21,049 nt of DNA from Bacteriovoracaceae bacterium (GCA_041586955.1 JBFGZE010000060.1:1-21049); one strand, 5' to 3'; shown: positions 1-17,461, counted from the stretch's first letter. Notes: generated by a model from the letters alone, not told the origin. Program-made: numbers and translations.

Positions 1-84
1 GCCTAACATTTTATGCAGGTGATGAGCAAAGGTTGTTTTACCAGAGCCTGAACCACCAGCAATTCCAATTATCAAAGGGGTCAT
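1..84 (-). CDS. udk: Uridine kinase, N-terminal part (runs off the left window edge)
   Basis: My translation from ATG at 84-82 gives MTPLIIGIAGGSGSGKTTFAHHLHKMLG, the uridine kinase P-loop. GGAG RBS at 93-90 overlaps the upp stop. Not in the ORF track. Confidence 0.88.
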   Translation of the reverse strand, partial: MTPLIIGIAGGSGSGKTTFAHHLHKMLG

Positions 85-92
85 GTTATCTC

Positions 93-725
93 CTACATAT
101 TTTGGAAAAGGCGATCTCCGGCATCACCAATGCCAGGTAAAAGGTAACCATTGTCGTTAAGGCCTTCCTCTTTATTAAGAGCATAAACTTTGACATCAGG
201 ATGAAAGTGGTGAAGTTTTTCTAGGCCTTGACCACTCACTAAGATAGACATCATTGTGATTTTGCCGACATTATATTGCTTAAGACGATCGATACAGGCA
301 ATGGCGGTATCTCCGGTCGCTAAGAGAGGGTCTAGTAAAATGATATCTTTCTTTTCTTGGGTCTCTGGCAATTTAAAATAATACTCAACGGTATTTTTAA
401 TAAACTTATCACGATAAATGCCAATATGACCTGCATTGGCGTTGGGGATCGCCTGTAAAACACCATCAAGCATACCGTTACCAGCACGCATCACAGAGAC
501 CACCAGTGGAGAATTTTTAATAAAGTTGGCAGGAGTGGCGCAAAGAGGTGTCTCAATGTTTTTGGTCTCTAATTCTAAATCTTCTGTCACATAGAGCGCC
601 AAATGCATGGCAACTTCATTCATTAAGCGGCGAAACTCTCGCGCTTGAGTACTTTTATTCCGCATCATACTTAACTTATGCGTTAAAACAGGATGGTTAA
701 CTTGAATATATTGCTTATCTGTCAT
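93..725 (-). CDS. upp: Uracil phosphoribosyltransferase
   Basis: 210 aa; HPVLTHKLSMMR, IETPL, VMRAGNGM, GHIGIYRD, PRPP loop LLDPLLATGDT, C-terminal GYLLPGIGDAGDRLF. Confidence 0.96.
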   Translation of the reverse strand: MTDKQYIQVNHPVLTHKLSMMRNKSTQAREFRRLMNEVAMHLALYVTEDLELETKNIETPLCATPANFIKNSPLVVSVMRAGNGMLDGVLQAIPNANAGHIGIYRDKFIKNTVEYYFKLPETQEKKDIILLDPLLATGDTAIACIDRLKQYNVGKITMMSILVSGQGLEKLHHFHPDVKVYALNKEEGLNDNGYLLPGIGDAGDRLFQNM

Positions 726-737
726 TTACGACTCCTT

Positions 738-1940
738 TTAAAAAACTGTACCGTCACTGGCCAATTGAATGGGGGGCGAACTTAATTCACAACGTTTTTT
801 CGCCAACCGGCGGCCGGCCCACCATGTTCCCCCTTCTAGCATTTTCGCTAGAGGGAATTCTTCTTCAGACTTACCTAACTTCTCACGAATAAGAGGTGCC
901 ATTTTATCAAGAAACACTAAAGTCAATGCACGCCATTCAATAATCAGAGCGCTATCTGGCCTATGGCGCTCATTGATCAGCGTCTGGTCCTTGAGAGAAA
1001 TAAGTCCACTATCAAGTAGTAATCCTCCATTGCGATATTCAGCAAGTCCCGTCAAGAGGTTGACTCCAATAACATCAATCCCTGCTTCTTCAATAGGTTC
1101 GATTAAAGAGTACGTAAGCCATTGAGAAAGTTTATGAAACACAATAAGTTCTTTCTCTCCACTTGGTAATGCGTACTCCCAAATATCACCAAGACTCACA
1201 CCCTTTATCTCAAGACGACTTGGCCAAATTCCGCCAAAGTATTTAAGAACAAAGCGCAGAAGGTCTGTGGCATGGATACTTTCCCCATCAGGGGCCAGAA
1301 AATCCAGAAGATCACCTGGGCGACCGTTAGGAAAAATATTTGGTTGTGCCGCGAGAACTTTCCCCAATGATTGCAGTAATTGGGTACGCCCCTCAACTCC
1401 AATCAAAGGATTAGATTCTGTTATTTGAAAACCTTGAATCAAGTCATCAACACTAAAGTCCTGTAAGTGTTTCGCCTGAACGCTAAAATTTGGGCCAAAC
1501 TTAGAGTCGACAAACATATGATAACTGGCAACCGCTAAACCTTCAGAGCGCTCGATACGACTCCCTGTCGATTGTTCCTGGTATGACCATTCATTGCCCG
1601 CTCCTGCGTCAAGAAGTACTGAGACCAATGCCAAATCAATCTTCGCCTTGGCCTTCTCCCGCGCATCAAAACCAGTAATTAAATGATCAAATTGCTTTTC
1701 ACGATCCACACCACCGGCACGAAAATGGCCCCAGCGAGAGTGAAAAGGAATCTCATAAGTCGGGTAATTATCTTTGATCACTTCTAAAACGTAATCTGTC
1801 ACTTCGTCTAATTTCTCAGGATGGAGATCAAAATGAGTCCCTCCCTTTTGGGCCATTTTATAAATTATTTGCGTCTTATCGCGAATCGCTTGAGGCGATA
1901 GCAGATAATCCACTAATTCATCGTCAAACTTCACTTTCAT
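738..1940 (-). CDS. urc4: URC4/Urg3-family protein (DUF1688), uracil catabolism
   Basis: 400 aa; IPFHSRWGHF, VSVLLDAGAG, RSEGLAVAS, FHKLSQWLTYSL, LTGLAEYRNGGL, LEGGTW, C-terminal SDGTVF. 4-nt ATGA overlap with the upstream gene. Confidence 0.92.
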   Translation of the reverse strand: MKVKFDDELVDYLLSPQAIRDKTQIIYKMAQKGGTHFDLHPEKLDEVTDYVLEVIKDNYPTYEIPFHSRWGHFRAGGVDREKQFDHLITGFDAREKAKAKIDLALVSVLLDAGAGNEWSYQEQSTGSRIERSEGLAVASYHMFVDSKFGPNFSVQAKHLQDFSVDDLIQGFQITESNPLIGVEGRTQLLQSLGKVLAAQPNIFPNGRPGDLLDFLAPDGESIHATDLLRFVLKYFGGIWPSRLEIKGVSLGDIWEYALPSGEKELIVFHKLSQWLTYSLIEPIEEAGIDVIGVNLLTGLAEYRNGGLLLDSGLISLKDQTLINERHRPDSALIIEWRALTLVFLDKMAPLIREKLGKSEEEFPLAKMLEGGTWWAGRRLAKKRCELSSPPIQLASDGTVF

Positions 1941-3196
1941 TCCTCTAACTCCCTACCGACAACATTATCAAGGTCTTCACCAGCACGAACTTCTCCGTCG
2001 GTAAAATAACCAGCGGCCTTTTTGGCCTCCATTTCAACCTGAGCGTCAGCAGGAATTAAATAGTCGGGAATAGAGCAACGATTAACAACTTCAATGCCAC
2101 TATTAACGATGGAGTCATATTTCATATTGCTCATAGAATGGAGATTATGAATTTTTTTAATGCCAAAATACTGAAGAATGTCAGGCATAAATTCTTGAAA
2201 ACGAGCGTCCTCAACACCAGCGACACATTCAGTACGCTTAAAATAAGTGGCCGCAGAATCACCACCAACTTGTCTCTTACGCGCATTATAAACGAGGAAC
2301 TTTGTCACTTCACCAAGGGCACGCCCCTCTTTTCTAAAGTAAACAATAATCCCAACGCCGCCATTCTGGGCGGTTTTCGCCGCTTCCTCAATGCCGCAGG
2401 TCAGGTATGGGCGACAGGTGCAGATATCGGAACCAAAAACATCAGAGCCATTGCATTCATCGTGAACACGACAAGTTAATTCCACTTCAGGATTGCGAAG
2501 ATCATTCACATCGCCAAAGATATAGGCCGTTGAGGAACCAATTGGTGGTAAGAAAACTTTTAAGTCTGGCCGTGTGACCAATTCAGGAAACATTCCCCCT
2601 GTTTCATTAAAAAGAATCTTACGCAATTCACCTTCATCGATATTTAATCTTTTGGCGATTCCTGGTAAATGCCAAACGGGTTCAAACGCCAATTTAGTTA
2701 CTTTGATATCTTTTTCTTTGGTCACGATTTTGCCGTCTACTTTCAAACGACCTTTTTCAATCGCCTCGTAAAGCTCTGGAATCTGAAGACGAGCTTGAGT
2801 CACAGCAATCGAGGGTTTAATATTGATCCCTTTATCTAAATAATCCTTAAAGACCTCTTGGACATGCCCTCCCCATGGATCGATGGAAACAATCTTGCAT
2901 GGATCAAACCATGAGTCAGCAGGAGATATTGTAATAGGGGCCTCTGTGTTATTGAGGTCAGGGTGGTGATCAGTTTTAAAATCACCTTTTGCGATAGAAA
3001 GTGCACGGTAAACGGTATAGGAGCCACTATGAGTACCGATAGCATTACGGTTTTCTTTTTCAGAAATCGTCGCAATAATTGGCCCTCTGGCCTGTGGATC
3101 TTTTGCACCCCATTCAATTGGAAGGGATTCTTTAAAAACTTGATTCTTATGCGATGTTAAAATCACATGTGACGAGCGCTTTAATTCATTCGACAT
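1937..3196 (-). CDS. urc1: URC1/Urg1-type GTP cyclohydrolase II-like protein (N-terminal extension plus GCH II domain), uracil/UMP catabolism
   Basis: 419 aa; N-terminal WGAKDPQARGPI and RNAIGTHSGSY of the Urc1 subfamily; zinc motif RVHDECNGSDVFGSDICTC; YFRKEGRALG. Adjacent to urc4 and upp. Confidence 0.9.
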   Translation of the reverse strand: MSNELKRSSHVILTSHKNQVFKESLPIEWGAKDPQARGPIIATISEKENRNAIGTHSGSYTVYRALSIAKGDFKTDHHPDLNNTEAPITISPADSWFDPCKIVSIDPWGGHVQEVFKDYLDKGINIKPSIAVTQARLQIPELYEAIEKGRLKVDGKIVTKEKDIKVTKLAFEPVWHLPGIAKRLNIDEGELRKILFNETGGMFPELVTRPDLKVFLPPIGSSTAYIFGDVNDLRNPEVELTCRVHDECNGSDVFGSDICTCRPYLTCGIEEAAKTAQNGGVGIIVYFRKEGRALGEVTKFLVYNARKRQVGGDSAATYFKRTECVAGVEDARFQEFMPDILQYFGIKKIHNLHSMSNMKYDSIVNSGIEVVNRCSIPDYLIPADAQVEMEAKKAAGYFTDGEVRAGEDLDNVVGRELEE

Positions 3197-3214
3197 TATA
3201 TTCTCCTTTCAGGA

Positions 3215-4693
3215 CTAACTCATCCAATTGGCATCAGATTGCATTTGCCATTTCGTTGTTATTTTTTTGACATCTGACCAGAAATCTAAGCTATGAAGTC
3301 CGGTGATATCACCATGGCCAAATTTTGAATCATTGACCCCTCCAAAAGAAAAAGGTTCTCTTGGAACAGGCACCCCAATATTAATGCCAACCATTCCGGC
3401 ATTGGCCATATTAGCGATCATTTCCGCCATCGCTCCGTTTGAGGTAAAGACGGAACAGGCATTGCCATATTCATTATCATTTTCAACGGCCATCGCTTCG
3501 GTAATATTTTGGCAACGAACAATACTCATAACCGGGCCAAATAATTCAACCGTTGCGGCAAAGCTTCCAGGTTTAACATTATCTAAAATAGTGGGGCCAA
3601 TCCAATGTCCGTCAGCAAAGTCTCCGCCAGGGTTTTGGTTACGCCCATCTAATAAAAGAGTCGCACCTTCGGCCAATGCTTTATCAATCGCTTCGTTAAG
3701 AAAGCTCACCTGCTCAGCAGTAATAATGGCACCCATTTTATCGCAAAGAGTAGTCGCCTCAGCGCGCTCTTTAATTTTTTGGATTTGCGCTTCAACATTG
3801 CCGACCGCTAATAGCACACTGGCGGCCATACAGCGTTGACCAGCACAACCCGTAAAGGAATCGGCAATCCCCTGCCCGGCGATAGCAGGATCAGCATCGG
3901 GAAGAAGGACGATATGGTTTTTCGCCCCACCTAAACAAAGAGCTCTTTTACCATTTTGGGAAGCGCGAGAATAAACGATTTTAGCCACTTTAGTTGAGCC
4001 GACAAATCCAACCGCCTTCACATCTTTATTATCAATAAGGGCGTTAACAGTCTCAGCTCCCCCTTGAACGACGGTAAGAACACCATCAGGAAGGCCTGCG
4101 TCCTTTAAGCAATTGGCAATGGCCATACTAGTCAGTGGTGTTTTTTCCGAAGGTTTCCAAACATAGCAATTACCGAGGGTAATCGCGATGGGAATAGTCC
4201 ACATAGGAACCATCGCCGGAAAGTTAAAGGGAGTAATAGAAGCGACAACCCCTAAAGGCCTGCGTCTATATTCACAAAAAACGCCGCGAGAGACTTCCAT
4301 GCGGCCGCCGAGATCAAGGTTTTGGATACTTAAAGCAAATTCCAGAACTTCAATCCCTTTCAAAATACCGGCCTTAGACTCCCCTAAGGTTTTCCCATTT
4401 TCACTACTGATTAAATGGGAGATTTCTTCAATTCGCTCATATAATAATTCGCGAAATTTAAACATAATTTGCGTGCGCTCCTTAATAGGAGTGCTCTTCC
4501 ACTTGGGAAAAGCTTCTTGAGCACGGGTGACGGCCAGGTCAACATCATTGCTGGTTGAATGATGGAATAGACCGATTGTTTGTCCCGTTAAAGGGCTTAT
4601 CACAAATTCCTCAGCACCAGTTGCTGGAATCCATTTTCCCTGAACAAAGTTTTGACAATTAATATGCTCACTCGGTAGACGAATGGAGGTCAT
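3215..4693 (-). CDS. mmsA: CoA-acylating (methyl)malonate-semialdehyde dehydrogenase
   Basis: 492 aa ALDH with ITPFNFPAMVPMW, KPSEK, FVGST, GGAKNH, catalytic CAGQRCMA and GMVGINIGVPVP, all typical of the MmsA/IolA subfamily. AAGGAG RBS at 4707-4702. Confidence 0.92.
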   Translation of the reverse strand: MTSIRLPSEHINCQNFVQGKWIPATGAEEFVISPLTGQTIGLFHHSTSNDVDLAVTRAQEAFPKWKSTPIKERTQIMFKFRELLYERIEEISHLISSENGKTLGESKAGILKGIEVLEFALSIQNLDLGGRMEVSRGVFCEYRRRPLGVVASITPFNFPAMVPMWTIPIAITLGNCYVWKPSEKTPLTSMAIANCLKDAGLPDGVLTVVQGGAETVNALIDNKDVKAVGFVGSTKVAKIVYSRASQNGKRALCLGGAKNHIVLLPDADPAIAGQGIADSFTGCAGQRCMAASVLLAVGNVEAQIQKIKERAEATTLCDKMGAIITAEQVSFLNEAIDKALAEGATLLLDGRNQNPGGDFADGHWIGPTILDNVKPGSFAATVELFGPVMSIVRCQNITEAMAVENDNEYGNACSVFTSNGAMAEMIANMANAGMVGINIGVPVPREPFSFGGVNDSKFGHGDITGLHSLDFWSDVKKITTKWQMQSDANWMS

Positions 4694-4700
4694 CTCTTAC

Positions 4701-4777
4701 TCTCCTTTTTTTGATGAGTGATTATCAACTCATCAAATGAAAAAAGAAAATAGTAATGATAAATCACGCGCTTGCAT
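4701..4777 (-). promoter_or_regulatory. Putative promoter and leader of the pyrimidine-catabolism operon, with a 10-bp inverted repeat next to the RBS
   Basis: TTTGATGAGT (4710-4719) / ACTCATCAAA (4728-4737) perfect inverted repeat. Possible sigma70-like ATGCAA-N16-TACTAT on the minus strand (4777-4750). Confidence 0.45.
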
Positions 4778-4837
4778 AGGATTTGCTGAAAAAAAACCAT
4801 TGAGATTAGTTTGACCTAATACTTACGATTAACCAAC

Positions 4838-4864
4838 TAAATTATTTTGATCAGTTACCGATAA
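4838..4864 (+). promoter_or_regulatory. Putative sigma-28 (FliA) promoter
   Basis: TAAA(4838-4841)-N15-ACCGATAA(4857-4864), versus the consensus TAAA-N15-GCCGATAA. Confidence 0.6.
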
Positions 4865-4871
4865 ATAGATC

Positions 4872-5900
4872 ATGAAATGGCAAAATGGGATATTTTTAAC
4901 GGGTTACTTTGGGCTTTGGGTCATATGCCTGGTGCTGATTTATCTCGTACCAGATTCTAACATATCTCTTCATCGGTCTCAACGCTCCCCCGCTAGTGCG
5001 CGATTAGAGTTTCCCATTGAAAATTGGTATGCCGGATTATTGGCCCCCCAATTTTATGGAAGTGTCAGTCATTGGCCACAATTTTTTTTACAGCAAAAAA
5101 AGTCCTGGCAAGCATGGCGGCCTAAAATCGACAATACCGACGATCAAGACCCTACTCATTTTTTAGCTCTTGCCTCGCAAAGTATGGGCCATCCCTATCA
5201 AGTGGTTGACCTGCCCTATGATCAAACAGCTCCCGACCTAGGGATCCTAATGGGCATTAATCAAGCAAGTATTTACCCAAAAATGAGCCCCGCACAAATA
5301 GACAAAATCCCCTTTCCACCCTATGTTGAAAAGTTTCAGTACACGGGACATTATTGGAGCTTTTACCCACAGGAGAAAATAGAGAAGCGAACATTAATTG
5401 TCCGTGCCGAAAAATTAAATAAAATAATTGATGAGTATAAAAAAGGTCCCCTTCAGATCAAGTTTTATTCTTTTAAAAAGCATAAAAAGGCCAAGCATAA
5501 TTTTTTAAGCTTTATCCATAGATTAAATCATCGGCCACTTAGTCATGACGTTTTTGAGATTCATTTTGGCCGCTTTCCCCATTGGCAAATCGAGGAACAG
5601 GATTTTAACAGTGGTCAATTTTTTCTCACCGGAAAAATGATGATTAAGGGCCTCCCCTACCCCTTTAAGGCAATCATTAAGGAACTGCATTTTAACCCAG
5701 AAGACCAACTTTATTTACCCAGTTCTCAAATGGAAATTGCGCTACTTTCTTGGGGGCTTAAGGATGCTGAAATCAACATGGCCCAAGAAGCTATTAAAAA
5801 AGAACTTCTGCGAAAAGAGCACCATGCCATTTGGGACGCTCTGAACCTGGGGCAACTTCACCCTCTCTGGCAGAGAAAAAGGGCCCTTGCTCATGAGTAA
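4872..5900 (+). CDS. Hypothetical membrane-anchored or secreted protein
   Basis: 342 aa ORF; N-terminal hydrophobic segment followed by an RSPAS linker; overlaps the next gene's start; no family recognised. Confidence 0.75.
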   Translation: MKWQNGIFLTGYFGLWVICLVLIYLVPDSNISLHRSQRSPASARLEFPIENWYAGLLAPQFYGSVSHWPQFFLQQKKSWQAWRPKIDNTDDQDPTHFLALASQSMGHPYQVVDLPYDQTAPDLGILMGINQASIYPKMSPAQIDKIPFPPYVEKFQYTGHYWSFYPQEKIEKRTLIVRAEKLNKIIDEYKKGPLQIKFYSFKKHKKAKHNFLSFIHRLNHRPLSHDVFEIHFGRFPHWQIEEQDFNSGQFFLTGKMMIKGLPYPFKAIIKELHFNPEDQLYLPSSQMEIALLSWGLKDAEINMAQEAIKKELLRKEHHAIWDALNLGQLHPLWQRKRALAHE

Positions 5901-7053
5901 ATTGATCAAATTGCTTTTCCTATTTTGCTATACGGGCGTTATCGCCTCTGAAGTTGACTTAACTGGCCTGCCTCATTTAATGGAGTCTTGTCAAAAAGAT
6001 CAAAAGATTAAACTTGGTGTAAAATTGGCCCATAGTTATTATTTTGGGCCGTCAGCGATCCGCCAATTATTGCGTTCCCATATACCTAATGAAGTGGATC
6101 TTTTAGATGCCAAAAAACTATCAGTACTCACCCAAAGAATTAAAGACAAGGACCTCTACCGACAACTCAATAAATGGCAACGTTTGGAGCTTCCCAATTG
6201 GTCATGCCTCCCTTCTATCCCCTTTAATAAAGTGCAGATTAACGAGCGTTTAAAGACTCATTCCCTGCTTAAATATTTTAACCGTCACGCGCATCAATCA
6301 AGGGATCTGAAGGATCAAATCTCCGAGTTTAATTTAGGACAAATCAAATGGGGAAATATGGATCGCAAGAATCCTATTCTCTATTGGAAAAACACTCGGG
6401 AAAAAATCGAAATATTAATCGAAGGACCGATGGCGGCGGTGACAGCTTATCTCATAGACCAATATTACTTAAATCGCCGATTCAATATTCAATTATCCCG
6501 TTATACCAAGATGGGAACCGATATCGGTTTACCGTTTTTACCATCCTTGCAGTCGAATCTCATTAGTGCCCAGGCCCAAACGATCCTAGAGGAAGAGAAG
6601 GATGTTAAACTGGAAACCACTTCTTTAAGCGATGATTATTTACTCAAAATCATTCAACAAAAAATACAATTACGTCGCGGCGATACGTGGCTAATAGGGC
6701 CTCTAGATCTGGCTCCAAGCGGAGTCTTACGTCGTTTTAAGTCGCCCAATTTTCACCCCTATACTCCTGCGCCAGACAGCAAAGAACATCTTAAAGAAAT
6801 CATCTTGCTCGGCAAAGAGCGAATCATCCTATCACCTAGGTGGGGTCAGGAAAAAGGCATCACCTGGTTTTTCTCCTCTCGTGCCCTGGCCAGAGATTTT
6901 CATTTCCAAATGAGAAACAGCTTGCATAATAAGCAAATACTTAGGCCCTATACAGGCCCAATCACCACAGAGATACAAAAAAACAAAGAGGCGAAAGAAT
7001 TATGGAATTGGTGGTATCGTCTAAAATTTCGCCAGTCCAATACTAACAAATAA
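5893..7053 (+). CDS. Secreted hypothetical protein, possibly a degenerate phospholipase D/cardiolipin-synthase fold
   Basis: Likely ATG at 5893 overlapping the upstream stop; signal-peptide-like N-terminus; IEILIEGPMA, TTSLSDDYLL...RRG and HLKEIILLG resemble PLD-superfamily segments. Confidence 0.65.
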   Translation: MSKLIKLLFLFCYTGVIASEVDLTGLPHLMESCQKDQKIKLGVKLAHSYYFGPSAIRQLLRSHIPNEVDLLDAKKLSVLTQRIKDKDLYRQLNKWQRLELPNWSCLPSIPFNKVQINERLKTHSLLKYFNRHAHQSRDLKDQISEFNLGQIKWGNMDRKNPILYWKNTREKIEILIEGPMAAVTAYLIDQYYLNRRFNIQLSRYTKMGTDIGLPFLPSLQSNLISAQAQTILEEEKDVKLETTSLSDDYLLKIIQQKIQLRRGDTWLIGPLDLAPSGVLRRFKSPNFHPYTPAPDSKEHLKEIILLGKERIILSPRWGQEKGITWFFSSRALARDFHFQMRNSLHNKQILRPYTGPITTEIQKNKEAKELWNWWYRLKFRQSNTNK

Positions 7054-7060
7054 GGCAGAT

Positions 7061-7088
7061 TAAAGATTTCCCAATCTTTAACCGATAA
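7061..7088 (+). promoter_or_regulatory. Putative sigma-28 (FliA) promoter
   Basis: TAAAGATT from 7061 and ACCGATAA at 7081-7088 (TAAA-N16-ACCGATAA), 33 nt before the GTG at 7122; AGGAG RBS. Confidence 0.6.
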
Positions 7089-7121
7089 TTATAGTCTGAT
7101 TAGTTAATCCTAGGAGAAGCT

Positions 7122-8411
7122 GTGTACGGCCCAAATCACTTTTATATTACTTTTAATCCCCATCTTAATGATTACCTTGAGGCGGATTATACCCAGGCAC
7201 ATGAATTTTTTGATTACCTTAAAGAGGAGATTACAAGCAATAAAAACGGCTATGCCTATTGGGGAAAAATTATTGCCCGGGATCGTGAAAGTAGTATTAA
7301 CATTGATCGATACCGAGACCTGATTAAGAATAATCAAGACAATAATTGTTCAACTCATCTCTATATTACCGACTTTAAAAATATTTGGGTTGGTAAGGTG
7401 GAGTCTATTCATCGCAATATTGGCAATGATTTTAAAACTCTTCAATTCTATAAAGAAAAGAATGTGGAAGTATGGTTTAAATTAAGTGACTTTACGCTAT
7501 TAGAATATTGTTATGAGTCCACCGCCAATAAGCTCAGTGAACTTTATATTGATAACGACTATATGAAATTAAAAATTGATGAACTCTCTCCTTTCACGAC
7601 TGGTATCAAATACCCCGCGATTGTCCAGGATTTATCGGAAGAACAATTTTTTGATCAATTAGAAGAAAATGAAACTCATCTTATCTTAAATGATAACGCG
7701 GCCATTAATACGACTGGTCTCCTCCAAGTGTCCAGGACATTGCAAACCTTTGCTCTACCAGAACCACTCTACTCAATGTTACCTCATTCTGCGAGATTTG
7801 AAATTCAATCAGCGGAACTCGATATGCTCGAGCGGCGCCATCATAATATTAAAAAAATTGCCTTTAGCTATATCAAAGCACTGGAAATGATCGTCAATGA
7901 CCTAACCATCGGTCATCTCAAACGGGCGGGACTTGGCGACCAATTTTTCGTCAAACCGGCGATGATGCCACCTAAGCTATATCTTGATGATAGAGAAGAT
8001 GACCTCCTGCCCATCGGCCTATTTCAAAAAAATTATTCCATGAATCAATTGGTTTATTTTTTTCAACGTTGTGTAAAAAGCGGTCGGATCGATTTCGCTC
8101 GCGCCTATAAAGGGCAAAAATTATTTCTCAAATACTTCACTCAGGATTTTCCAAAAAGAATGGAACATAATCATATTTATGAAATGCGTGGTGTCCTCGC
8201 CCATTCTGATTCATGCGCCGTCTCAATAAAAGACGCCATGGCGGTACGAAACTTAATTCTAGGTGTAGGTCATATGGGTGTCATTCATGAGCTCTACCAT
8301 CATTTTTCACCTGAACTCCTAAGGCCCATGGCCCAAGTACAGAGCATCCCTGATGATGGCAAAAAAATCACCTCTAAGGACGTTCAAAAAATCCTTAAAA
8401 AGGCGAGTTAA
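7122..8411 (+). CDS. Hypothetical cytoplasmic protein: HP0729-like N-terminal domain plus C-terminal HEPN-like domain
   Basis: 429 aa, GTG start with AGGAG RBS; N-terminal ITFNP..YWGKI..HLYITD..WVGKV; C-terminal SYIKALE helix and RGVLAH (Rx4H). Confidence 0.7.
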   Translation: MYGPNHFYITFNPHLNDYLEADYTQAHEFFDYLKEEITSNKNGYAYWGKIIARDRESSINIDRYRDLIKNNQDNNCSTHLYITDFKNIWVGKVESIHRNIGNDFKTLQFYKEKNVEVWFKLSDFTLLEYCYESTANKLSELYIDNDYMKLKIDELSPFTTGIKYPAIVQDLSEEQFFDQLEENETHLILNDNAAINTTGLLQVSRTLQTFALPEPLYSMLPHSARFEIQSAELDMLERRHHNIKKIAFSYIKALEMIVNDLTIGHLKRAGLGDQFFVKPAMMPPKLYLDDREDDLLPIGLFQKNYSMNQLVYFFQRCVKSGRIDFARAYKGQKLFLKYFTQDFPKRMEHNHIYEMRGVLAHSDSCAVSIKDAMAVRNLILGVGHMGVIHELYHHFSPELLRPMAQVQSIPDDGKKITSKDVQKILKKAS

Positions 8412-8608: not shown

Positions 8609-10600
8609 TTGAAAACACTACCATTATTGATCTTCATTTTACTTTTTACGCTCGGCTGTTCTGGGAAAAAGAATAGCTCCAAAGCGATGTTTAATATTAT
8701 CTCATTAGGTCATTTAACCTCTGCTGATTATTCTGGGGGGATGATGCTCTATGGAAAGAATCACGATGATGGGGCCGCTTTTTCTCGTATATTATCGTCC
8801 GAAGCTGACTTTTCGTTCCCCCTGGACAATGGACATTATGACTTTCATATCATCATGTGGGATGGAGCTTCCGGTCATTTTACGGGGGATGCTTTTTGCG
8901 GGAACATCCAAGGCATCATTTTAAACGGTGGTGAGACACCGATTAATATCTATATGTCGAAAGAAAGATGCGCTAATCAATTGGTCAATGGCGCTTCTGT
9001 ATCAATCAATGGCAATAATGATCTGGCGCAATTAGATTTTAGAAGTTGTACTGACAATGCGTTGGCAGCGATTATAACTTTTTCCCCGAATGACTGTACC
9101 AATGGAAATGCCGGTGACATTCAATCTTTTAAAATTTCACTTCTTGAATACCAAGGGGATAAGAGTTCAGTGAACGATTACCTCACCAGTGAATGTATTT
9201 CAAGCTTTGACGGCACAGGTCTGCGCTTTCCCACAGGTAATGGTGCCAATCAATTCTTCGCGACAAAACTGCAGTATTTCTCGGATACTTCCTGTGGCAG
9301 TTCATTGGCCAATGTGATTTACCCTAACTCTTTGTCCAATCCAGCGAACCCAAATGACACCTCACTATTCTATAATTCAGCGGGAACAAATTATCTTCTC
9401 TTTGATGATATCGGTCTCCCCGGTAGTGCGGCCCAAGGACCGTCTCCATTCGTCTCCACCTGGCAAACCACCACTGCTGCGGAAAGTATCACCCTGCCTC
9501 TGCGTAGTGGGTACAATTATAATTTTACCGTTGACTGGGGAGATGGTTCCCCTGCTGATACGGTCACTTCAGATACAGACCTCGACAAGACTCATACTTA
9601 CGCCAGCCCTGGAACCTATAACGTCTCCATTACCGGTACCGTAGAGGCGTGGTTTTTTAATAATAGTGGCGATAAAGATAAGATTATTTCTGTAACGGAC
9701 CTTGGGGATATGGGTTGGCTCAACCTTGAAAATGCTTTTTGGGGCTGCTCTAATATGACTTCGTTTGCTGGTGGTAATACGGCCAATGTCACGAGCATGG
9801 GAAGCATGTTCCGTCAGGCCACCCTCTTAAACTCGCTGGATCTTTCCAGCTTTGATACCGCCTTGGTCACCGATATGGGCTCTATGTTTAAGGATTCCCC
9901 CGCTCTTACTTCCCTGGATTTATCCGGCTTTGATACCAGCAGTGTCATTAATATGAGTGCGATGTTTTTAAATGCCTCCGGACTATCCAATTTGAACCTC
10001 TCTGGCCTCAACACCGCCAATGTCAACACAATGCAATGGATGTTTCAGGGGGCTTCCAGTTTAACCTCGTTGGATCTATCAAGCTTTAATACCTCTAGTG
10101 TCACCGATATGAGCTTTATGTTTCGCGATGCCTCTAGCTTAACCTCACTGGATTTATCCGGTTTTAATACCACAAATGTCACTAAAATGAACTGGATGTT
10201 TTATAATGCCTCCAACTTACCCTCGTTGGATCTATCAATCTTTGATACCTCTAGTGTCACCGATATGAGCTTTATGTTTTATGGCACCACCAGTTTGAAC
10301 TCCCTGGATCTCTCCAGTTTTAATACCGCAAATGTCACCACTATGCAGAGTATGTTTTATAGTGCCTCCAGCTTGGCCAGCATGAATCTCTCTCATTTTA
10401 ATACAACCAGTGTCACCAATATGAGCAATATGTTTCGCAGCACAGCTTCATTAACGGCCCTGGACACCACCGGATGGGATATTTCTTCTGCCGGCACCAG
10501 CACCGATGTCTTCACAGGAGCAAACATCGGTCTTAGTGTCAGCTGTGATCAGGGTGGTCTCCCCGGCACCGGAAGTTTCTTTGGTAAAACCTGCTATTAA
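8609..10600 (+). CDS. BspA-family / DUF285 surface lipoprotein with a PKD-like domain
   Basis: 663 aa; lipobox-like FTLG-C; Cys-rich N-terminal region; PFVSTWQTT..YNFTVDWGDGS..HTYASPGTYNVSITG (PKD-like); nine 26-aa DUF285-type repeats. Confidence 0.88.
   Translation: MKTLPLLIFILLFTLGCSGKKNSSKAMFNIISLGHLTSADYSGGMMLYGKNHDDGAAFSRILSSEADFSFPLDNGHYDFHIIMWDGASGHFTGDAFCGNIQGIILNGGETPINIYMSKERCANQLVNGASVSINGNNDLAQLDFRSCTDNALAAIITFSPNDCTNGNAGDIQSFKISLLEYQGDKSSVNDYLTSECISSFDGTGLRFPTGNGANQFFATKLQYFSDTSCGSSLANVIYPNSLSNPANPNDTSLFYNSAGTNYLLFDDIGLPGSAAQGPSPFVSTWQTTTAAESITLPLRSGYNYNFTVDWGDGSPADTVTSDTDLDKTHTYASPGTYNVSITGTVEAWFFNNSGDKDKIISVTDLGDMGWLNLENAFWGCSNMTSFAGGNTANVTSMGSMFRQATLLNSLDLSSFDTALVTDMGSMFKDSPALTSLDLSGFDTSSVINMSAMFLNASGLSNLNLSGLNTANVNTMQWMFQGASSLTSLDLSSFNTSSVTDMSFMFRDASSLTSLDLSGFNTTNVTKMNWMFYNASNLPSLDLSIFDTSSVTDMSFMFYGTTSLNSLDLSSFNTANVTTMQSMFYSASSLASMNLSHFNTTSVTNMSNMFRSTASLTALDTTGWDISSAGTSTDVFTGANIGLSVSCDQGGLPGTGSFFGKTCY
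9776..10477 (+). repeat. Nine tandem 78-bp (26-aa) coding repeats, DUF285/BspA leucine-rich type
   Basis: Consensus [N/D]TsnVTdMsxMFxxAssLtSLDLSxF repeated in frame nine times. Confidence 0.9.
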
Positions 10601-10752: not shown

Positions 10753-10799
10753 ATGGCCCTAAATAACAAATCAACTAATTGTTTATGAAGAGGCCCATC

Positions 10800-11867
10800 A
10801 TGACCACTCAAATCAATCCAGAAAACCCCTTGGGTATCAAGGCAATTGACCATTTAGAATTCTGTTGCGACCAATTAGATACACCGACTAAAGAATTATT
10901 TTATACGTTTGGTTTTGCTAAAACTTTTAGTAATGACCAAGAAGAATTATTTACCCAAGGGCAAGTGCGCTTTCTCCTATCGGCGAAAAAAGATGGCCAT
11001 GCCCGCCAATATTTTAACAAGCACGGCGAAGGTGTCAGTACTCTATCCTTTCTGGTTGAAGATGTGGGCCACGCTCTCAAGGAGGCCCGAACTCGAGGAG
11101 CAGAAGTCTTGCAAGAAGTCCAAATGGTAGAGAGCAAGCATGGCGTTTATAAGACCGCCCGTATTCAAGGCTTTGGTGATGTTCAAAATGAATTTGTCGA
11201 GCGACCCATGGCCCATTTCCGCCCCGAACTCAAATCCCTGGCCCTTGACTCCAAGGCGCGTCCCCTCGCCTCTCGCGTCGCACGTATTGATCACCTCACC
11301 AATAATGTGCCGAAAGGAGAAATGGATCAATGGGTGGATTTCTATAAACGTATTTTTGGTTTTAAAGAAACTCGATACTTTGATATCAAAGGCGTTAAAA
11401 CTGGCCTGCAATCAAAAGTGGTACAATTGCCAAATGGAGTGGTGATCATTCCTATTAATGAACCCGAGGCCAAAGATGGAAAATCACAGATCCAGGAATT
11501 CCTCGACCTCCATAAAGGCGCTGGCGTTCAGCATATTGCCCTGACCTGCTCTAATATTATTGAAACAGTAAAGGACCTAAGACAACGAGATATTAAATTT
11601 CTCGATATCCCCGCGACCTATTATGAAGATATTCCCAAACGAAATTTCAAAGTGGAAGAGGACCTCAAAGTTTTAGAGGACACTCAATTATTAGTTGATG
11701 GTGACCCCGAAGGCTACCTCATTCAAAACTTTACTCAAACCTATATTGGCCCACTTTTCTTTGAGTTTATTCAAAGGAAAAACCATAATGGCTTTGGAGA
11801 AGGAAATTTCCAGGCACTCTTTGATGCCATCGAACGCGACCAAGTCAAACGCGGCTATTTGGAGTAA
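10800..11867 (+). CDS. hppD: 4-hydroxyphenylpyruvate dioxygenase
   Basis: ENPLGIKAIDHLEF, Fe ligands in IDHLTNNV / GVQHIA / FFEFIQRK, and GFGEGNFQALFDAIERDQ. Start taken at ATG 10800 (GAGG RBS) rather than TTG 10779. Confidence 0.95.
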   Translation: MTTQINPENPLGIKAIDHLEFCCDQLDTPTKELFYTFGFAKTFSNDQEELFTQGQVRFLLSAKKDGHARQYFNKHGEGVSTLSFLVEDVGHALKEARTRGAEVLQEVQMVESKHGVYKTARIQGFGDVQNEFVERPMAHFRPELKSLALDSKARPLASRVARIDHLTNNVPKGEMDQWVDFYKRIFGFKETRYFDIKGVKTGLQSKVVQLPNGVVIIPINEPEAKDGKSQIQEFLDLHKGAGVQHIALTCSNIIETVKDLRQRDIKFLDIPATYYEDIPKRNFKVEEDLKVLEDTQLLVDGDPEGYLIQNFTQTYIGPLFFEFIQRKNHNGFGEGNFQALFDAIERDQVKRGYLE

Positions 11868-11869
11868 TT

Positions 11870-12649
11870 ATGGAAACCATCATCGTTGAAAAACATTGGC
11901 GCGATAACCAGCACCTCACTTTGATTCGCATCAATCGTCCCAAGGTGCTCAACGCTCTCAATAATACGGTCATGCAAGAGATTGTTCAGACACTTGAAGA
12001 ATTAGAGAAGGCCAATGATCATTATCTGACAATCCTCACTGGTGATGACCGCGCTTTCGCCGCTGGTGCAGATATCGCCAGTATGAAAGATGACTCGGCG
12101 GTGGACCAATACCTCGGCACACGCGCCCAATTATGGAAACGCTTTAACCTTATTCGCAAACCTATTATCGCTGCCGTTAATGGCCTTTGCCTAGGCGGTG
12201 GTAATGAATTGGCGATGGCCTGTGATCTTATTATTGCCGGAGATCAGGCGAAGTTTGGCCAGCCAGAAATCAAATTAGGACTTATGCCCGGTGCCGGTGG
12301 TACCCAACGCTTAGTCAAGGCGATTGGTAAAGCACGGGCCATGCGCTTATGCCTTACCGGTGAAATGATTAACGCCGAGACTGCTTTTTCGTGGGGTCTT
12401 TTATCAAAAGTTGTTCCTGCCAATACCTTATTGCAAGAAACTTTTGAGATGGCAAAAAGCATTTGTCAGCAGCCCCCCCTCGCCGGCCGCATGATCAAAG
12501 AAAGTGTCAACCATAGCTTTGAATCTTCTTTGGCCCAAGGCCTAGATTTTGAACGCCGACTTTTTTATTTAACCTTTGCCACTCAAGATCAAAAAGAAGG
12601 AATCAATGCCTTTCTTGAAAAACGCCAACCCCAATTTAAAGGACAATAG
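11870..12649 (+). CDS. paaF: Enoyl-CoA hydratase, PaaF-like (2,3-dehydroadipyl-CoA hydratase)
   Basis: Crotonase fold: NRPKVLNALN, FAAGADI, GGGNELAMACD, QPEIKLG, PGAGGTQRL; paa context. Confidence 0.85.
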   Translation: METIIVEKHWRDNQHLTLIRINRPKVLNALNNTVMQEIVQTLEELEKANDHYLTILTGDDRAFAAGADIASMKDDSAVDQYLGTRAQLWKRFNLIRKPIIAAVNGLCLGGGNELAMACDLIIAGDQAKFGQPEIKLGLMPGAGGTQRLVKAIGKARAMRLCLTGEMINAETAFSWGLLSKVVPANTLLQETFEMAKSICQQPPLAGRMIKESVNHSFESSLAQGLDFERRLFYLTFATQDQKEGINAFLEKRQPQFKGQ

Positions 12650-13438
12650 ATGAGCGATTACCAATGGATTCAAGTGGAGCTCCAGGGCGCGACACAAATC
12701 ATCACGATCAATAGACCCGACGTCTATAACGCCCTTAATAAAGATTCGAAAATCGAAATCATACGAGCAATCCGTCAGGCCAATAAAAATAATGAGGTCC
12801 GCTCTATCATACTAACTGGCAATGGCAAGGCCTTTTGTACCGGCCAGGACCTAAACGACCGCTCAATTTCTAGCGATGAAGGCCCAGTTGACCTTGGTAA
12901 AACATTAGAAACCGAATGGAATCCTCTGATCAACGCTATCCGCGATTCCAAAAAAATTATGATTGGCGCCATTAATGGTGTCTGCGCTGGCGCCGGTCTT
13001 TCCGTTGCCTTGGCCTGTGACATAATCCTCGCCAAAGAAGGCAGTCAATTTATTAGTGCCTTTTCTAAATTGGGCCTGGCCCCGGATGCCGGCAGCTCCT
13101 ATATCTTTGTGCGCCAAATAGGCTATCACCGCACCTTAGAATTCTTCCTCCTCAACCACCCCCTTCTGGCCGAGGAAATGGAAAAATCAGGACTTATCAA
13201 CCGCGCCTGTAGCGAACCCCTGACTGAGGCCTTAGAATATGCCGAGAAAATTAATCAATTGGCGCCTTTATCCACTGAGTCAATCAAGAGCAATTTATTA
13301 AAGGCCCAGGATGTCAACTTTGAACAAAGTATGCTAAATGAAACCTACACCCAGCGCTTTCTCAGTAATAGCGCGGACTATCAAGAGGGGCTCAAGGCCT
13401 TTTTTGAAAAAAGACCACCTCAATTTGGTGGCCATTAA
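12650..13438 (+). CDS. paaG: Ring-1,2-epoxyphenylacetyl-CoA isomerase, PaaG-like
   Basis: Crotonase fold with FCTGQDL, GAGLSVALACD and GLAPDAG (PaaG-type Asp, lacks the hydratase Glu pair); follows paaF. Confidence 0.85.
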   Translation: MSDYQWIQVELQGATQIITINRPDVYNALNKDSKIEIIRAIRQANKNNEVRSIILTGNGKAFCTGQDLNDRSISSDEGPVDLGKTLETEWNPLINAIRDSKKIMIGAINGVCAGAGLSVALACDIILAKEGSQFISAFSKLGLAPDAGSSYIFVRQIGYHRTLEFFLLNHPLLAEEMEKSGLINRACSEPLTEALEYAEKINQLAPLSTESIKSNLLKAQDVNFEQSMLNETYTQRFLSNSADYQEGLKAFFEKRPPQFGGH

Positions 13439-13471
13439 ATAAAATCATTAAATGCTTGAGGAGACAATGAT

Positions 13472-14281
13472 ATGGCAACACAAGAATACAGTGCAGAAGA
13501 ATTACAATTATTCCAAGACATTAAAAATGGAAAAACTTTTGATAAAGGTGAAGAACTTCCTGCCATCTACAAAAAAAATCTCATTAATTTATTGTGGATG
13601 CAAGGTGACTCCGAATATTCAGGTGCCCTTGGTTATATGCCCTGGATTGAGAAGGCTCCTAGCGTTCAGGAAAAATTATTAGTCGCACAAATCGTCAAAG
13701 ATGAAATGCGCCACGCCTCTGTCATTTACCGTATGCTTAATGAATTAGGCGAGAATCCAGAAGATCATGTGAAAAAAGTAGACCTAGGTTTTAAACTAGA
13801 AGAAGATGAAATCAATATTGGCTTTAAAAGAGTAAAAGACGATTACCGTGTCAATATCTTCTATTATAATATTAAATATTGGACAGACTTTATCCTTTTC
13901 AATTTTCTTATGGATCGCGCTGCTGGTCACCAATTGGAAGACACCCTCGATTCAAGCTACCTTCCCTGGAAAAAAGGGATTGAAGGAATTTACAAAGAGG
14001 AAGTCATGCACCTCACCCATGGAGATAAATGGGTCAAGATTCTTGCCAAAGATCCAAAAGATAAAGAATTTCTTCAAGAAAGACTGAACCTTTGGTGGCC
14101 TCGTGTTATGAATGTCTTTGGTAAATCAAAAGGTGGCGCTAATAGTATCTACGTCAACTTAGGTCTCAAACGCCGCAATAACGATGTCGTTCGCAAAATC
14201 TTTGTCGACGAAATCCAAACACTTTGTGATGAAGTTGGCCTTATTGTTCCTGAGTGGAATGAAAGCGATTACTTAAACTAA
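13472..14281 (+). CDS. paaA: PaaA-like ferritin-fold di-iron aryl-CoA epoxidase/monooxygenase (PaaA/PaaC family)
   Basis: 269 aa; YKKNLINLL..QGDSEYSG, WIEKAP, DEMRH, MDRAA..QL, SSYLPW, EEVMHLTHG, WWPRVMNVFG; GAGGAG RBS. Confidence 0.75.
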   Translation: MATQEYSAEELQLFQDIKNGKTFDKGEELPAIYKKNLINLLWMQGDSEYSGALGYMPWIEKAPSVQEKLLVAQIVKDEMRHASVIYRMLNELGENPEDHVKKVDLGFKLEEDEINIGFKRVKDDYRVNIFYYNIKYWTDFILFNFLMDRAAGHQLEDTLDSSYLPWKKGIEGIYKEEVMHLTHGDKWVKILAKDPKDKEFLQERLNLWWPRVMNVFGKSKGGANSIYVNLGLKRRNNDVVRKIFVDEIQTLCDEVGLIVPEWNESDYLN

Positions 14282-14297
14282 ACCTCTAGGAGTTTCC

Positions 14298-15155
14298 ATG
14301 GATATCAATTCCGCGGCAATAATCGGCGCGGGCACCATGGGTAGTGGTATCGCCCAATGGATGGCCCAAGCTGGTTGCCAGGTATTTCTTTGCGACGCAT
14401 TTCCCGAGCAGGCGGATAAGGCCTTAACGCTTATTCATGCCTCGTGGGATAAATTATTAAGCAAAAAAAAATTTAGCGCCGATCAAATTAAAAACTTCAA
14501 AGAACACTTATCCATTGGTGAGATTGAAAGCATTCCCACCACAACGGACTTAGTGATTGAAGCAATCATTGAGCGTGAAGATATTAAACAAGAGCTCTTC
14601 CAAAAATTGGATCAGCAATTGCCAGCGTCGACCATTTTCGCCAGCAATACGAGCAGTATCCCTATTGACCGCTTAGCGCTTAATTTTTCCAAAGAGCGTA
14701 AGGCGCGCTTTTTAGGGATTCACTTTTTTAACCCTGCCACCATTATGAAATTAGTGGAGCTGATTAAAGGGACTCATACCGATGAGGGCCTAATCAACGG
14801 TCTCTATCAATGGTTTGATTCTAAGGCCAAAATTCCCGCCATTTGCCAGGACTCACCAGGCTTTATCGTCAATCGCGTGGCCCGTAGTTTTTATGGGGAA
14901 TCCTTGCGCATCGTCAATCATTTGGACCGAGATTTGGTGGCCAAAACAGATAAGGTATTAAGAGAAGTTGGCGGCTTTAAAATGGGCCCTTTTGAGTTAA
15001 TGGACCTGATTGGTATCGACGTTAATTATTCAGTGACCGAATCAGTGTGGAAATCATTTTATCACGACCCACGTTTTGCCCCCCATCCTCTCCAAAGAAA
15101 GATGGTAGAATCTGGCCTTATTGGTAAAAAGGCAGAGGGAGGATTTTATGAGTGA
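14298..15155 (+). CDS. paaH: 3-hydroxyacyl(adipyl)-CoA dehydrogenase, NAD-binding/catalytic half of PaaH
   Basis: GAGTMGSGIA, EAIIE, ASNTSS, GIHFFNPA, DSPGFIVNR, MGPFELMDLIGIDVN. Confidence 0.9.
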   Translation: MDINSAAIIGAGTMGSGIAQWMAQAGCQVFLCDAFPEQADKALTLIHASWDKLLSKKKFSADQIKNFKEHLSIGEIESIPTTTDLVIEAIIEREDIKQELFQKLDQQLPASTIFASNTSSIPIDRLALNFSKERKARFLGIHFFNPATIMKLVELIKGTHTDEGLINGLYQWFDSKAKIPAICQDSPGFIVNRVARSFYGESLRIVNHLDRDLVAKTDKVLREVGGFKMGPFELMDLIGIDVNYSVTESVWKSFYHDPRFAPHPLQRKMVESGLIGKKAEGGFYE

Positions 15156-15822
15156 AAACCCAATCATCGTTCTTGCCACAAAAAATCACCCCCTTTATGA
15201 AGATCTAAAAAAGGCCTCTGTCATGTTCTGTGATCCAGAACTAGAAGAGCCCTTTGAACGCAAAAGAGGTAATTACCTCAAAGCGCAGGCGATCTTAGAC
15301 TTTACCCTGCAATCATCGGATAAAAAAGAAGCGCTCATCCGCTACCTCAGTATGGAGTTTCAAGCGCCTATTATCAGTGACCTGACGCTTTATTGGGGCG
15401 AAAAATTATTCGTCAAATACCCCAACCTAAAAGGAGCGATTGGTGCGGCCTTTTATTCGCCAAAAAATTGTTATGAGTTTTTTAGTCAAAACCAAGAATT
15501 GACAGATCTTATGGCAAAGGTGATGGGCGAGATTGGCCATCAAATTATATCTGTCGATCGGCCAGGCCTGGGATTTACCTATCCACGAGTCATTAGCATG
15601 ATAATCAATGAGGCCTATATCGCCAAAGATGATCGCCTCGCGAGTGAAGATGATATTGACCGTGCCATGAAGTTCGGTGTGAATTATCCACTAGGCCCTT
15701 TTGCCTGGGCCAGAGAAATTGGTACCTGGAAAATCGTTCATCTTTTGGATGAATTATTTAAAGTCTACCAAGACCCACGCTATCGAGTGGCCCCGTCTCT
15801 GCGACTAGAGGCCTTTCAATAA
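15148..15822 (+). CDS. 3-hydroxyacyl-CoA dehydrogenase C-terminal-domain protein (second half of a split PaaH)
   Basis: ATG at 15148 with GGAGG RBS, overlapping the paaH stop; PGL..PRVISMIINEA, DIDRAMKFGVNYPLGPF, YQDPRYR. Confidence 0.85.
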   Translation: MSENPIIVLATKNHPLYEDLKKASVMFCDPELEEPFERKRGNYLKAQAILDFTLQSSDKKEALIRYLSMEFQAPIISDLTLYWGEKLFVKYPNLKGAIGAAFYSPKNCYEFFSQNQELTDLMAKVMGEIGHQIISVDRPGLGFTYPRVISMIINEAYIAKDDRLASEDDIDRAMKFGVNYPLGPFAWAREIGTWKIVHLLDELFKVYQDPRYRVAPSLRLEAFQ

Positions 15823-15833
15823 AGGAATAAATC

Positions 15834-17033: not shown

Positions 17034-17461
17034 GCTCCCAGCTAGAAAAAGGACCTATCATTGTCTCCGCCTGTTTAGCGGGTATTAATTGTCGCTATGA
17101 TTGCGCTGCCAAATCAGCACCCGATATCGTCAAAATGGTAGAAGAAGGCCTGGCCATTCCCCTCTGCCCAGAGCAATTAGGAGGCTTACCCACGCCCCGT
17201 CCACCGGCCGAACAAATTGGCGATAAAGTCATCACCATTGATGGAGTTGATGTCACCGCTCAATACCAAAAAGGTGTGGAGGAGGCAATTAAAGTTGTTG
17301 AGATGACGGCGGCCAAAAAGGTTTACCTCAAATCAAAATCCCCTATGTGCGGGGTCGGCCAAATTTATGATGGGACGTTCAAAGGCCAATTAAAACCAGG
17401 AGAGGGTTTATTCGCGCGCGCCTTAAAAAAGCTCGGCGTTATGATCGAAGAAGTTGATTAA
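17030..17461 (+). CDS. DUF523 / TudS-family (2-thiouracil desulfurase-like) Fe-S protein
   Basis: SACLAGINCRYD, CPEQLGGLPTPRPPAE, KSKSPMCG, GEGLFA. True start likely TTG 17030 (TTGA overlap with the paaJ stop, AAGGA RBS), 143 aa. Confidence 0.85.
   Translation: MSSQLEKGPIIVSACLAGINCRYDCAAKSAPDIVKMVEEGLAIPLCPEQLGGLPTPRPPAEQIGDKVITIDGVDVTAQYQKGVEEAIKVVEMTAAKKVYLKSKSPMCGVGQIYDGTFKGQLKPGEGLFARALKKLGVMIEEVD

Follow-up and report, generated by a model that had tools for sequence, protein, structure and literature searches.

A URC-type operon headed by a predicted CoA-acylating semialdehyde dehydrogenase may carry uracil to acetyl-CoA in Bdellovibrionota and Myxococcota

Among the four pathways of pyrimidine degradation, the URC pathway is the least understood. 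In yeasts (Lachancea kluyveri URC1, URC4, URC6, URC8 and URC3,5; Schizosaccharomyces pombe urg1-3) it brings together an Urc1-type cyclohydrolase, the DUF1688 protein Urc4 and a uracil phosphoribosyltransferase (UPRT), which together act on uracil; its exit is the Urc8 reductase, which leads to 3-hydroxypropionate, and urea amidolyase, encoded by URC3,5, sets the nitrogen free. One account (PMC7530994) gives urea and a three-carbon acid as the end products. Here we describe a bacterial counterpart, the operon mmsA-urc1-urc4-upp-udk, found in a stretch of 21,049 nucleotides from a Bacteriovoracaceae bacterium (GCA_041586955.1, JBFGZE010000060.1:1-21049). This stretch, called "the window" below, is one whole contig (G000:C60) of a marine metagenome-assembled genome of 3.46 Mb in 194 contigs, 88% complete, and the negative results reported for the genome refer to that assembly. 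The nearest relatives, judged by Urc1, are Bacteriovorax and Halobacteriovorax.

Malonic semialdehyde or beta-alanine is likewise the outcome of the Rut and reductive pathways of pyrimidine degradation, both of which require an enzyme that disposes of the aldehyde. The locus described here differs from both: RutA was not found in the genome, nor was any dihydropyrimidinase over the cut-off, and ring opening is predicted to occur on the nucleotide, not on the free base. Both the URC pathway and UrcA are already known, UrcA being a bacterial Urc1 homologue that is described as a UTP cyclohydrolase in PMC9499338; the reference list of PMC12507026 cites the work on it (Zhang et al., ACS Catal 2021, 11:8895). 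A further described relative is Qng1, a DUF2419 protein. According to PMC9881137, it converts queuosine-5'-monophosphate into queuine and ribose 5-phosphate by means of an Asp and a Lys of a helix-hairpin-helix (HhH) motif, with the C-terminal carboxylate extending into the active site.

We propose with good confidence that the five-gene operon degrades uridine and uracil, the products being acetyl-CoA, ribose 5-phosphate and urea, as a variant of the URC pathway that serves carbon and energy supply or the disposal of a surplus rather than nitrogen supply. Udk and Upp would form uridine monophosphate (UMP) from uridine or cytidine and from uracil, respectively, and housekeeping kinases would presumably raise UMP to the triphosphate (UTP). 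Urc1, a GTP cyclohydrolase II-type zinc enzyme, would then open the uracil ring of UTP in two hydrolytic steps and release pyrophosphate; its likely products are 5-phosphoribosylurea and malonic semialdehyde, the latter made of the three carbons C4-C5-C6. Urc4 would cut the N-glycosidic bond of phosphoribosylurea, yielding urea and ribose 5-phosphate. Judging by its family and linkage, MmsA would turn malonic semialdehyde, by oxidation and decarboxylation, into acetyl-CoA, CO2 and NADH. Urea would be excreted, and ribose 5-phosphate and acetyl-CoA would enter central metabolism. Going by textbook energetics, a net gain of energy is expected even after the cost in ATP of reaching UTP. Compared with the yeast pathway, the exit would thus be a CoA-acylating dehydrogenase instead of a reductase; uridine kinase is included, the genes form one compact bacterial operon, and nitrogen is apparently not harvested, since neither urea amidolyase nor urease was found.

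The five genes are all on the minus strand (Table 1), with spacings, in order, of 18, -4 (a 4-nt overlap), 12 and 8 nt. A first-pass annotation made from the sequence had described them as co-oriented, tightly packed members of a bacterial URC-type operon, and this description holds: profile matches to GTP_CH_N, GTP_cyclohydro2, DUF1688 and MMSDH (malonate/methylmalonate-semialdehyde dehydrogenase) were all obtained. The last gene, udk, is truncated by the contig end, and contig C119 carries its other 184 codons at one end (G000:C119:6333-6887). Scored separately, that part gives 94 bits for the PRK family and shows 63% identity to a Bacteriovorax Udk. The ends of the two contigs have 30 nt in common, of which 29 are identical (one mismatch), and encode the same peptide where they overlap. 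Beyond udk, C119 continues with a spacing of about 195 nt, followed by an open reading frame (ORF) without family match.

The arrangement was followed first among close relatives. DUF1688 is present in 13 of 41 related genomes. In 12 relatives, the genome of the window being left out, urc1 and urc4 are adjacent without exception; upp comes next in 11 (a contig end truncates one locus) and udk next in 10. An aldehyde dehydrogenase (ALDH) lies directly 5' of urc1 in seven of the 12, with 64-69% identity to the MmsA of the window, and the remaining five, which have urc1-urc4 without adjacent mmsA, all carry a classical MMSDH elsewhere. Among the 80 loci that gave the best alignments to Urc1, out of at least 599 matches and therefore biased to close relatives, 79 contain Urc4, 75 Upp and 54 Udk, and 50 have mmsA directly upstream; nine of these loci are too short upstream to be judged, and one (L105) has an mmsA masked by shadow ORFs in GC-rich DNA. 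In three loci a gene is split into two overlapping or adjacent ORFs: urc1 in L021 (10172-11435, genome G006) and mmsA in L038 (7329-8968) and L043 (7378-8969). Frameshifts or errors of assembly may account for these splits.

For a broader and more balanced sample, the coordinates of Urc1 and MMSDH searches were crossed in 301 Bdellovibrionota genomes. Urc1 is present in 118 of them, and a same-strand gene of MMSDH type, scoring 433-487 bits, stands immediately upstream in 86. Nine others have an equally strong MMSDH match whose position was not tabulated; in one of these (G009) the smaller set of relatives places it next to urc1. Counting any MMSDH (E<=1e-100), the gene occurs in 115 of the 118 genomes with Urc1 versus 43 of the 183 without it, and 40 of those 43 have the classical type and three the low-scoring one. 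In Myxococcota, the Urc1 N-domain was detected in 41 of 201 genomes, and mmsA lies upstream in 29 of the 30 loci listed. Elsewhere, Alphaproteobacteria have the domain in 16 of 221 genomes (mmsA adjacent in 0 of 13 loci), Actinomycetota in 4 of 221 (0 of 4 loci) and Gammaproteobacteria in 3 of 221 (0 of 2 loci outside Cellvibrio; divergent in Cellvibrionaceae). Each of these last four samples includes a seed genome picked for having Urc1.

The gene arrangement is not due to chance, as dozens of genomes from two phyla share it, and the mmsA-headed operon is a feature of Bdellovibrionota and Myxococcota. The linkage pattern is what functional coupling predicts, kinship among the genomes notwithstanding. 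Conservation of mmsA with urc1-urc4 had been set beforehand as a check on the first-pass annotation, and the counts in the two phyla bear it out. The suggestion that such an operon would suit a predator also gains from its concentration there: Bdellovibrionota and Myxococcota are largely predatory.

The absence of an Urc8-like reductase, likewise noted at first pass, stands as well. No short-chain reductase of this type was found in the window or among 126 ORFs flanking 22 related loci that lack a same-strand adjacent mmsA, and a Pfam search of the same ORFs detected no recurrent reductase, decarboxylase or transaminase. The sole recurrent family near those loci is PutA, in four of them. A PutA-type gene (proline dehydrogenase plus ALDH, 1056-1411 aa) was observed shortly downstream of the URC cluster in L018, L058, L060, L061 and L100; its recurrence in several unrelated loci may be plain synteny.

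Family and linkage lead us to predict that MmsA is a CoA-acylating malonate/methylmalonate-semialdehyde dehydrogenase. The protein passes the TIGR01722 cut-off narrowly (Table 1), and its orthologues in relatives score 430-487 bits, some of them below the cut-off. When PDB was searched with MmsA, the ten best matches were all methylmalonate- or malonate-semialdehyde dehydrogenases (331-363 bits), among them human ALDH6A1 (9IZV), Sinorhizobium meliloti 4E4G, 4ZZ7 and Bacillus subtilis 1T90; the next ALDH scored 196. The motif GQRCMA with the catalytic Cys is kept in alignment with classical MMSDHs, including human ALDH6A1. The Glu of the 'LELGG' motif, present in the other two aligned ALDHs of the genome, is replaced by Leu in the MmsA of the window and by Leu or Phe in MMSDH-type proteins. 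Lack of this residue, the general base of hydrolytic ALDHs, fits a CoA-dependent rather than hydrolytic release.

The resemblance to classical MMSDHs thus extends to best sequence matches, GQRCMA and the missing general base. The URC-linked proteins are, however, distinct from them. In a tree of 70 ALDHs, 53 proteins encoded next to urc1 form one clade with a Shimodaira-Hasegawa-like approximate likelihood ratio test (SH-aLRT) support of 100, inside MMSDH but separate from the classical MMSDHs found in that phylum, which score 518-819 bits on TIGR01722. In family f13 the URC-type ALDH is unlinked to urc1; it falls inside the URC-type clade, as does the ALDH of one genus in which Urc1 was not found. 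The URC-linked clade is separable, and it straddles the annotation cut-off; hence the inconsistent naming of its members in genomes. No second MMSDH-like gene was found in the genome of the window, and in five near-complete relatives that bear the operon the sole MMSDH-like gene of that score class adjoins urc1.

Cellvibrionaceae offer a separate case. A classical MMSDH (678-683 bits) stands divergent from urc1 in each of the four loci seen, and it falls in the classical clade; the pairing of MMSDH and urc1 thus arose at least twice. These loci (L047-L049 and L051) have two UPRT genes, of which the copy after urc4 encodes a protein 43-46% identical to the Upp of the window, and the convergent copy one that is 36-37% identical. 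The convergent UPRT gives 228-233 bits for UPRTase in the two loci scanned (L048 and L051).

Loss of nitrogen as urea is suggested by what the rest of the genome lacks. The urease alpha subunit was not found in this genome or in any of the five near-complete relatives that bear the operon, and no urea carboxylase over the cut-off was detected in this genome, so urea is probably excreted. The lack of a urea-splitting enzyme fits a use of the pathway for carbon and energy rather than for nitrogen.

The same chemistry could serve another purpose, and this is the alternative that we take most seriously, while considering it unlikely. The locus would then be a salvage operon with an overflow valve: Upp and Udk would play the main role, Urc1 and Urc4 would drain excess UTP, MmsA would detoxify malonic semialdehyde, a reactive compound, and any energy gained would be incidental. 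The upp and udk genes are indeed the only copies found across the assembly, and in many lineages the urc1-urc4-upp core occurs without mmsA. Missing urea-splitting enzymes fit overflow and real carbon flux equally well, and the two views differ in purpose alone. What speaks against a mere valve is that a dedicated ALDH clade is kept beside urc1 in most Bdellovibrionota with Urc1 and in nearly all the Myxococcota loci listed. We thus maintain carbon and energy supply or surplus disposal as the purpose that these data suggest.

Urc4 is the enzyme for which a reaction is proposed here on structural grounds. A sequence search of PDB gave nothing meaningful (best E 0.12). An AlphaFold model built with 52 sequences had a predicted local distance difference test score (pLDDT) of 94.5 and a predicted template modelling score (pTM) of 0.92, and a Foldseek search with it returned Qng1/DUF2419 proteins as all ten best matches, with E from 8e-9. 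With VIA-align, the model matched Qng1 with Z 28.5 and a root-mean-square deviation of 2.8 A over 312 of the 319 residues of the chain; the next fold, that of AGOG DNA glycosylases, gave Z 11. The match covers the two-lobe fold derived from HhH glycosylases together with the insertions specific to Qng1. In an hhalign comparison with six actinobacterial DUF2419 proteins, a weak one (E 4.7e-4, probability 32%), the invariant K270 and E301 of Urc4 pair with the HhH Lys and Asp of Qng1. The C-terminal residue is a conserved aromatic one in either family (...TVF in Urc4, ...Y in DUF2419). The differences are also considerable: identity is about 17%, Urc4 has Glu for Asp and is about 80 residues longer, and the two belong to separate Pfam families. 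The PF10343 (DUF2419) profile does not match Urc4, and a Pfam scan to E 10 lists DUF1688 only. Urc4 as modelled is a structural relative of Qng1 and not a member of PF10343. On the strength of this fold, we propose that it is a Qng1-like N-glycosidase that hydrolyses 5-phosphoribosylurea, with urea as presumed leaving group in place of the 7-deazapurine of Qng1. Neither DUF1688 nor URC4 occurs in the Qng1 paper (PMC9881137).

Urc4 might act instead on another N-ribosyl intermediate, either a ring-opened ureidoacrylate ribotide, before release of the three-carbon unit, or dephosphorylated ribosylurea. What Urc4 and Qng1 have in common is the fold and, going by the weak profile alignment, two putative catalytic positions, and the yeast work names ribosylurea and not its phosphate as the Urc4 substrate (PMC7530994). 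However, the biological substrate of Qng1 is a 5'-monophosphate, as stated in PMC9881137, and the enzyme of the Urc1 family acts on a nucleotide, UTP, according to PMC9499338, so that a phosphorylated product is expected. We regard a different substrate as somewhat less likely still than the overflow valve, and retain phosphoribosylurea as the predicted one.

That mmsA might be an unrelated neighbour, placed beside urc1 by historical accident, is a doubt of a lesser order. MMSDH classically belongs to the catabolism of valine, beta-alanine or inositol, urc1-urc4 stand without mmsA in other phyla, and the same ALDH clade occurs in another operon in one genus. Nonetheless, the genome has no match to 3-hydroxyisobutyrate dehydrogenase (HIBADH, mmsB), and this, together with the lack of a second MMSDH, makes a valine-catabolic role for this mmsA unlikely. 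Adjacency has been kept across two phyla, Cellvibrionaceae brought the two genes together independently, and the five relatives that have URC genes without a linked gene have a classical MMSDH. An accidental neighbourhood is therefore improbable, and a role of MmsA at the end of the URC route is preferred.

As for ring opening, the Urc1 of the window has two domains, GTP_CH_N followed by GTP_cyclohydro2, and its residues 8-418 match PDB entries 7EJ3 and 7EEV with 558 bits. These entries carry the title 'GTP cyclohydrolase II'; we take them to be the bacterial UTP cyclohydrolase UrcA. The protein of the window is a different orthologue with the same two-domain build, the same zinc ligands and equivalents of Tyr105 and Arg128. 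In alignment with Escherichia coli RibA (2BZ0), its C248, C259 and C261 correspond to Cys54, Cys65 and Cys67, its Y303 to Tyr105 and its R332 to Arg128, and all five are invariant in 11 relatives. In RibA the Cys triad holds zinc, Tyr and Arg are catalytic, and Arg128 displaces pyrophosphate; conservation of its equivalent is thus in line with a triphosphate substrate. UMP was considered as the direct substrate and dropped because of this Arg and of the description of the family as UTP cyclohydrolase. The Urc1 step is probably not at the UMP level, and UTP is the predicted substrate.

These results modify the first-pass annotation, which had placed degradation at UMP and called the Urc1 and Urc4 reactions poorly defined. 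The family description and the match to 7EJ3/7EEV speak for UTP; Urc1 can no longer be called poorly defined, its homologue UrcA having been described; and for Urc4, the fold match to Qng1 points to phosphoribosylurea hydrolysis as a predicted reaction. The name of NF005536 ('GTP cyclohydrolase II') and the retained zinc ligands and catalytic residues of RibA would make Urc1 a standard enzyme of riboflavin synthesis. This reading can practically be dismissed, as Urc1 scores 50.7 bits on TIGR00505 (cut-off 205.85), the true ribA of the genome lies on contig C80 with 254 bits, and the two-domain family is described as UTP cyclohydrolase in PMC9499338.

A number of observations weigh against the catabolic interpretation of the operon and must be set beside the evidence above. 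Thirteen of the 118 Bdellovibrionota genomes with Urc1 have only a classical MMSDH located elsewhere (559-819 bits), seven have a low-scoring MMSDH of URC type that is unlinked, and three have no MMSDH, two of these with urc1 at the very start of a contig. Within 1.5 kb of urc1, mmsA is found in none of 19 loci of Alphaproteobacteria, Actinomycetota and non-Cellvibrio Gammaproteobacteria. The URC clade of ALDHs is also represented in one genus (G113 and G299) where Urc1 was not found. There the gene belongs to another operon (L143 6956-8428, L144 6941-8413), after genes for a solute-binding protein, a permease and an ATPase and before a GNAT acetyltransferase gene. The genomes compared are kin, and the counts overstate their independence. 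As upp and udk are sole copies, the operon serves salvage too and is not purely catabolic. The urea routes sought were the urease alpha subunit and urea carboxylase, in a genome 88% complete. The link between Urc4 and Qng1 is weak at the sequence level, and a common fold does not fix the substrate. Co-transcription of the five genes is inferred from their spacing; promoter-like and terminator-like sites were no commoner than in shuffled sequence, and those scans were uninformative. Finally, support for the predicted function of the operon comes from sequence, linkage and predicted structure.

The features of the operon are collected in Table 1. Just 5' of the ribosome-binding site of mmsA there is a perfect 10-bp inverted repeat with arms at 4710-4719 and 4728-4737 and an 8-nt spacer, which could be an operator or a hairpin in the 5' untranslated region. 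None of the other upstream regions that were scanned has this repeat, and consequently no regulatory claim is made. A search of Rfam gave no match in positions 1-5200. A search for sequencing runs listed four with DNA, all from one marine metagenome study, and none with RNA.

Table 1. Features of the URC-type operon in the window, listed from its first gene, and the region upstream
Feature	Position	Strand	Details
mmsA	3215-4693	-	492 aa; Aldedh 427 bits; TIGR01722 MMSDH 459.7 bits (cut-off 448.5); first gene of the operon
urc1/urcA	1937-3196	-	419 aa; GTP_CH_N 271.5 bits and GTP_cyclohydro2 57.3 bits; NF005536 706.9 bits (cut-off 403)
urc4 (DUF1688)	738-1940	-	400 aa; DUF1688/PF07958 466.4 bits, profile positions 1-420 of 420
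upp, uracil phosphoribosyltransferase	93-725	-	210 aa; UPRTase 209 bits; TIGR01091 215.1 bits (cut-off 208.35)
udk, uridine kinase, first 28 codons including P-loop	1-84	-	PRK family 26.9 bits; NF004018 match
Divergent intergenic region, 5' of mmsA	4694-4871		Shine-Dalgarno-like AAGGAG and inverted repeat

Further along the window, several genes lie on the opposite strand. Three consecutive ORFs at 4872-8411 (+), of 342, 388 and 429 aa, are without a Pfam match; the last of them shows a weak match to the HP0729 family (47 bits, cut-off 250). Genes for surface proteins with DUF285/PARCEL repeats (185 bits; 8 repeats) flank the region on both contigs, at 8609-10600 (+) in the window and at 3-704 of C119 (L113). 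The names in this family suggest that it belongs mainly to Mycoplasma and Listeria, and here it is found in a Bdellovibrio-like genome. Further on, seven same-strand ORFs at 10779-17033 (+) encode an HPPD-like dioxygenase, two enoyl-CoA hydratases, a PaaA/PaaC-like ferritin-fold protein, a 3-hydroxyacyl-CoA dehydrogenase, a product with the 3HCDH C-terminal domain only (15121-15822) and a thiolase; judged by these families, the run looks like a beta-oxidation-like catabolic cluster. An ORF at 16901-17461 (+), about 12 kb from the URC operon, matches the 2-thiouracil desulfurase family (PF04463, 135 bits). Its product, a second enzyme of pyrimidine bases, could feed thiouracils from tRNA breakdown into Upp.

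A literature search, thin on subscription journals, found no bacterial URC operon extended by mmsA and udk, no URC-linked ALDH clade and no report of a concentration in Bdellovibrionota and Myxococcota; nor did it find a link between Urc4 and Qng1, a DUF1688 glycosidase or a lack of urea use. Any of these (the mmsA/udk extension, the ALDH clade, the distribution, the missing urea use and the Urc4-Qng1 link) may already be in print.

Taken at its broadest, the proposal is that Bdellovibrionota and Myxococcota share a full pyrimidine-burning pathway, in which UrcA would open UTP, a Qng1-type Urc4 would split phosphoribosylurea and a dedicated MMSDH clade would lead to acetyl-CoA, nitrogen being lost as urea. 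To this wider statement we give moderate confidence, less than to the reading of the operon itself. If it is true, it would provide the first assigned reaction for DUF1688 and a previously unrecognised MMSDH clade, and would reverse the nitrogen-scavenging logic of the yeast pathway. Urc4/DUF1688 gains a reaction that can be tested, cleavage of phosphoribosylurea at its N-glycosidic bond by an active site resembling that of Qng1. The operon type occurs in more than 100 genomes, and its linkage independently supports, at the genomic level, malonic semialdehyde as the product with three carbons. The ring-opening chemistry of the URC pathway appears to be wired for carbon and energy, not for nitrogen, in bacteria that feed on the RNA of other cells.

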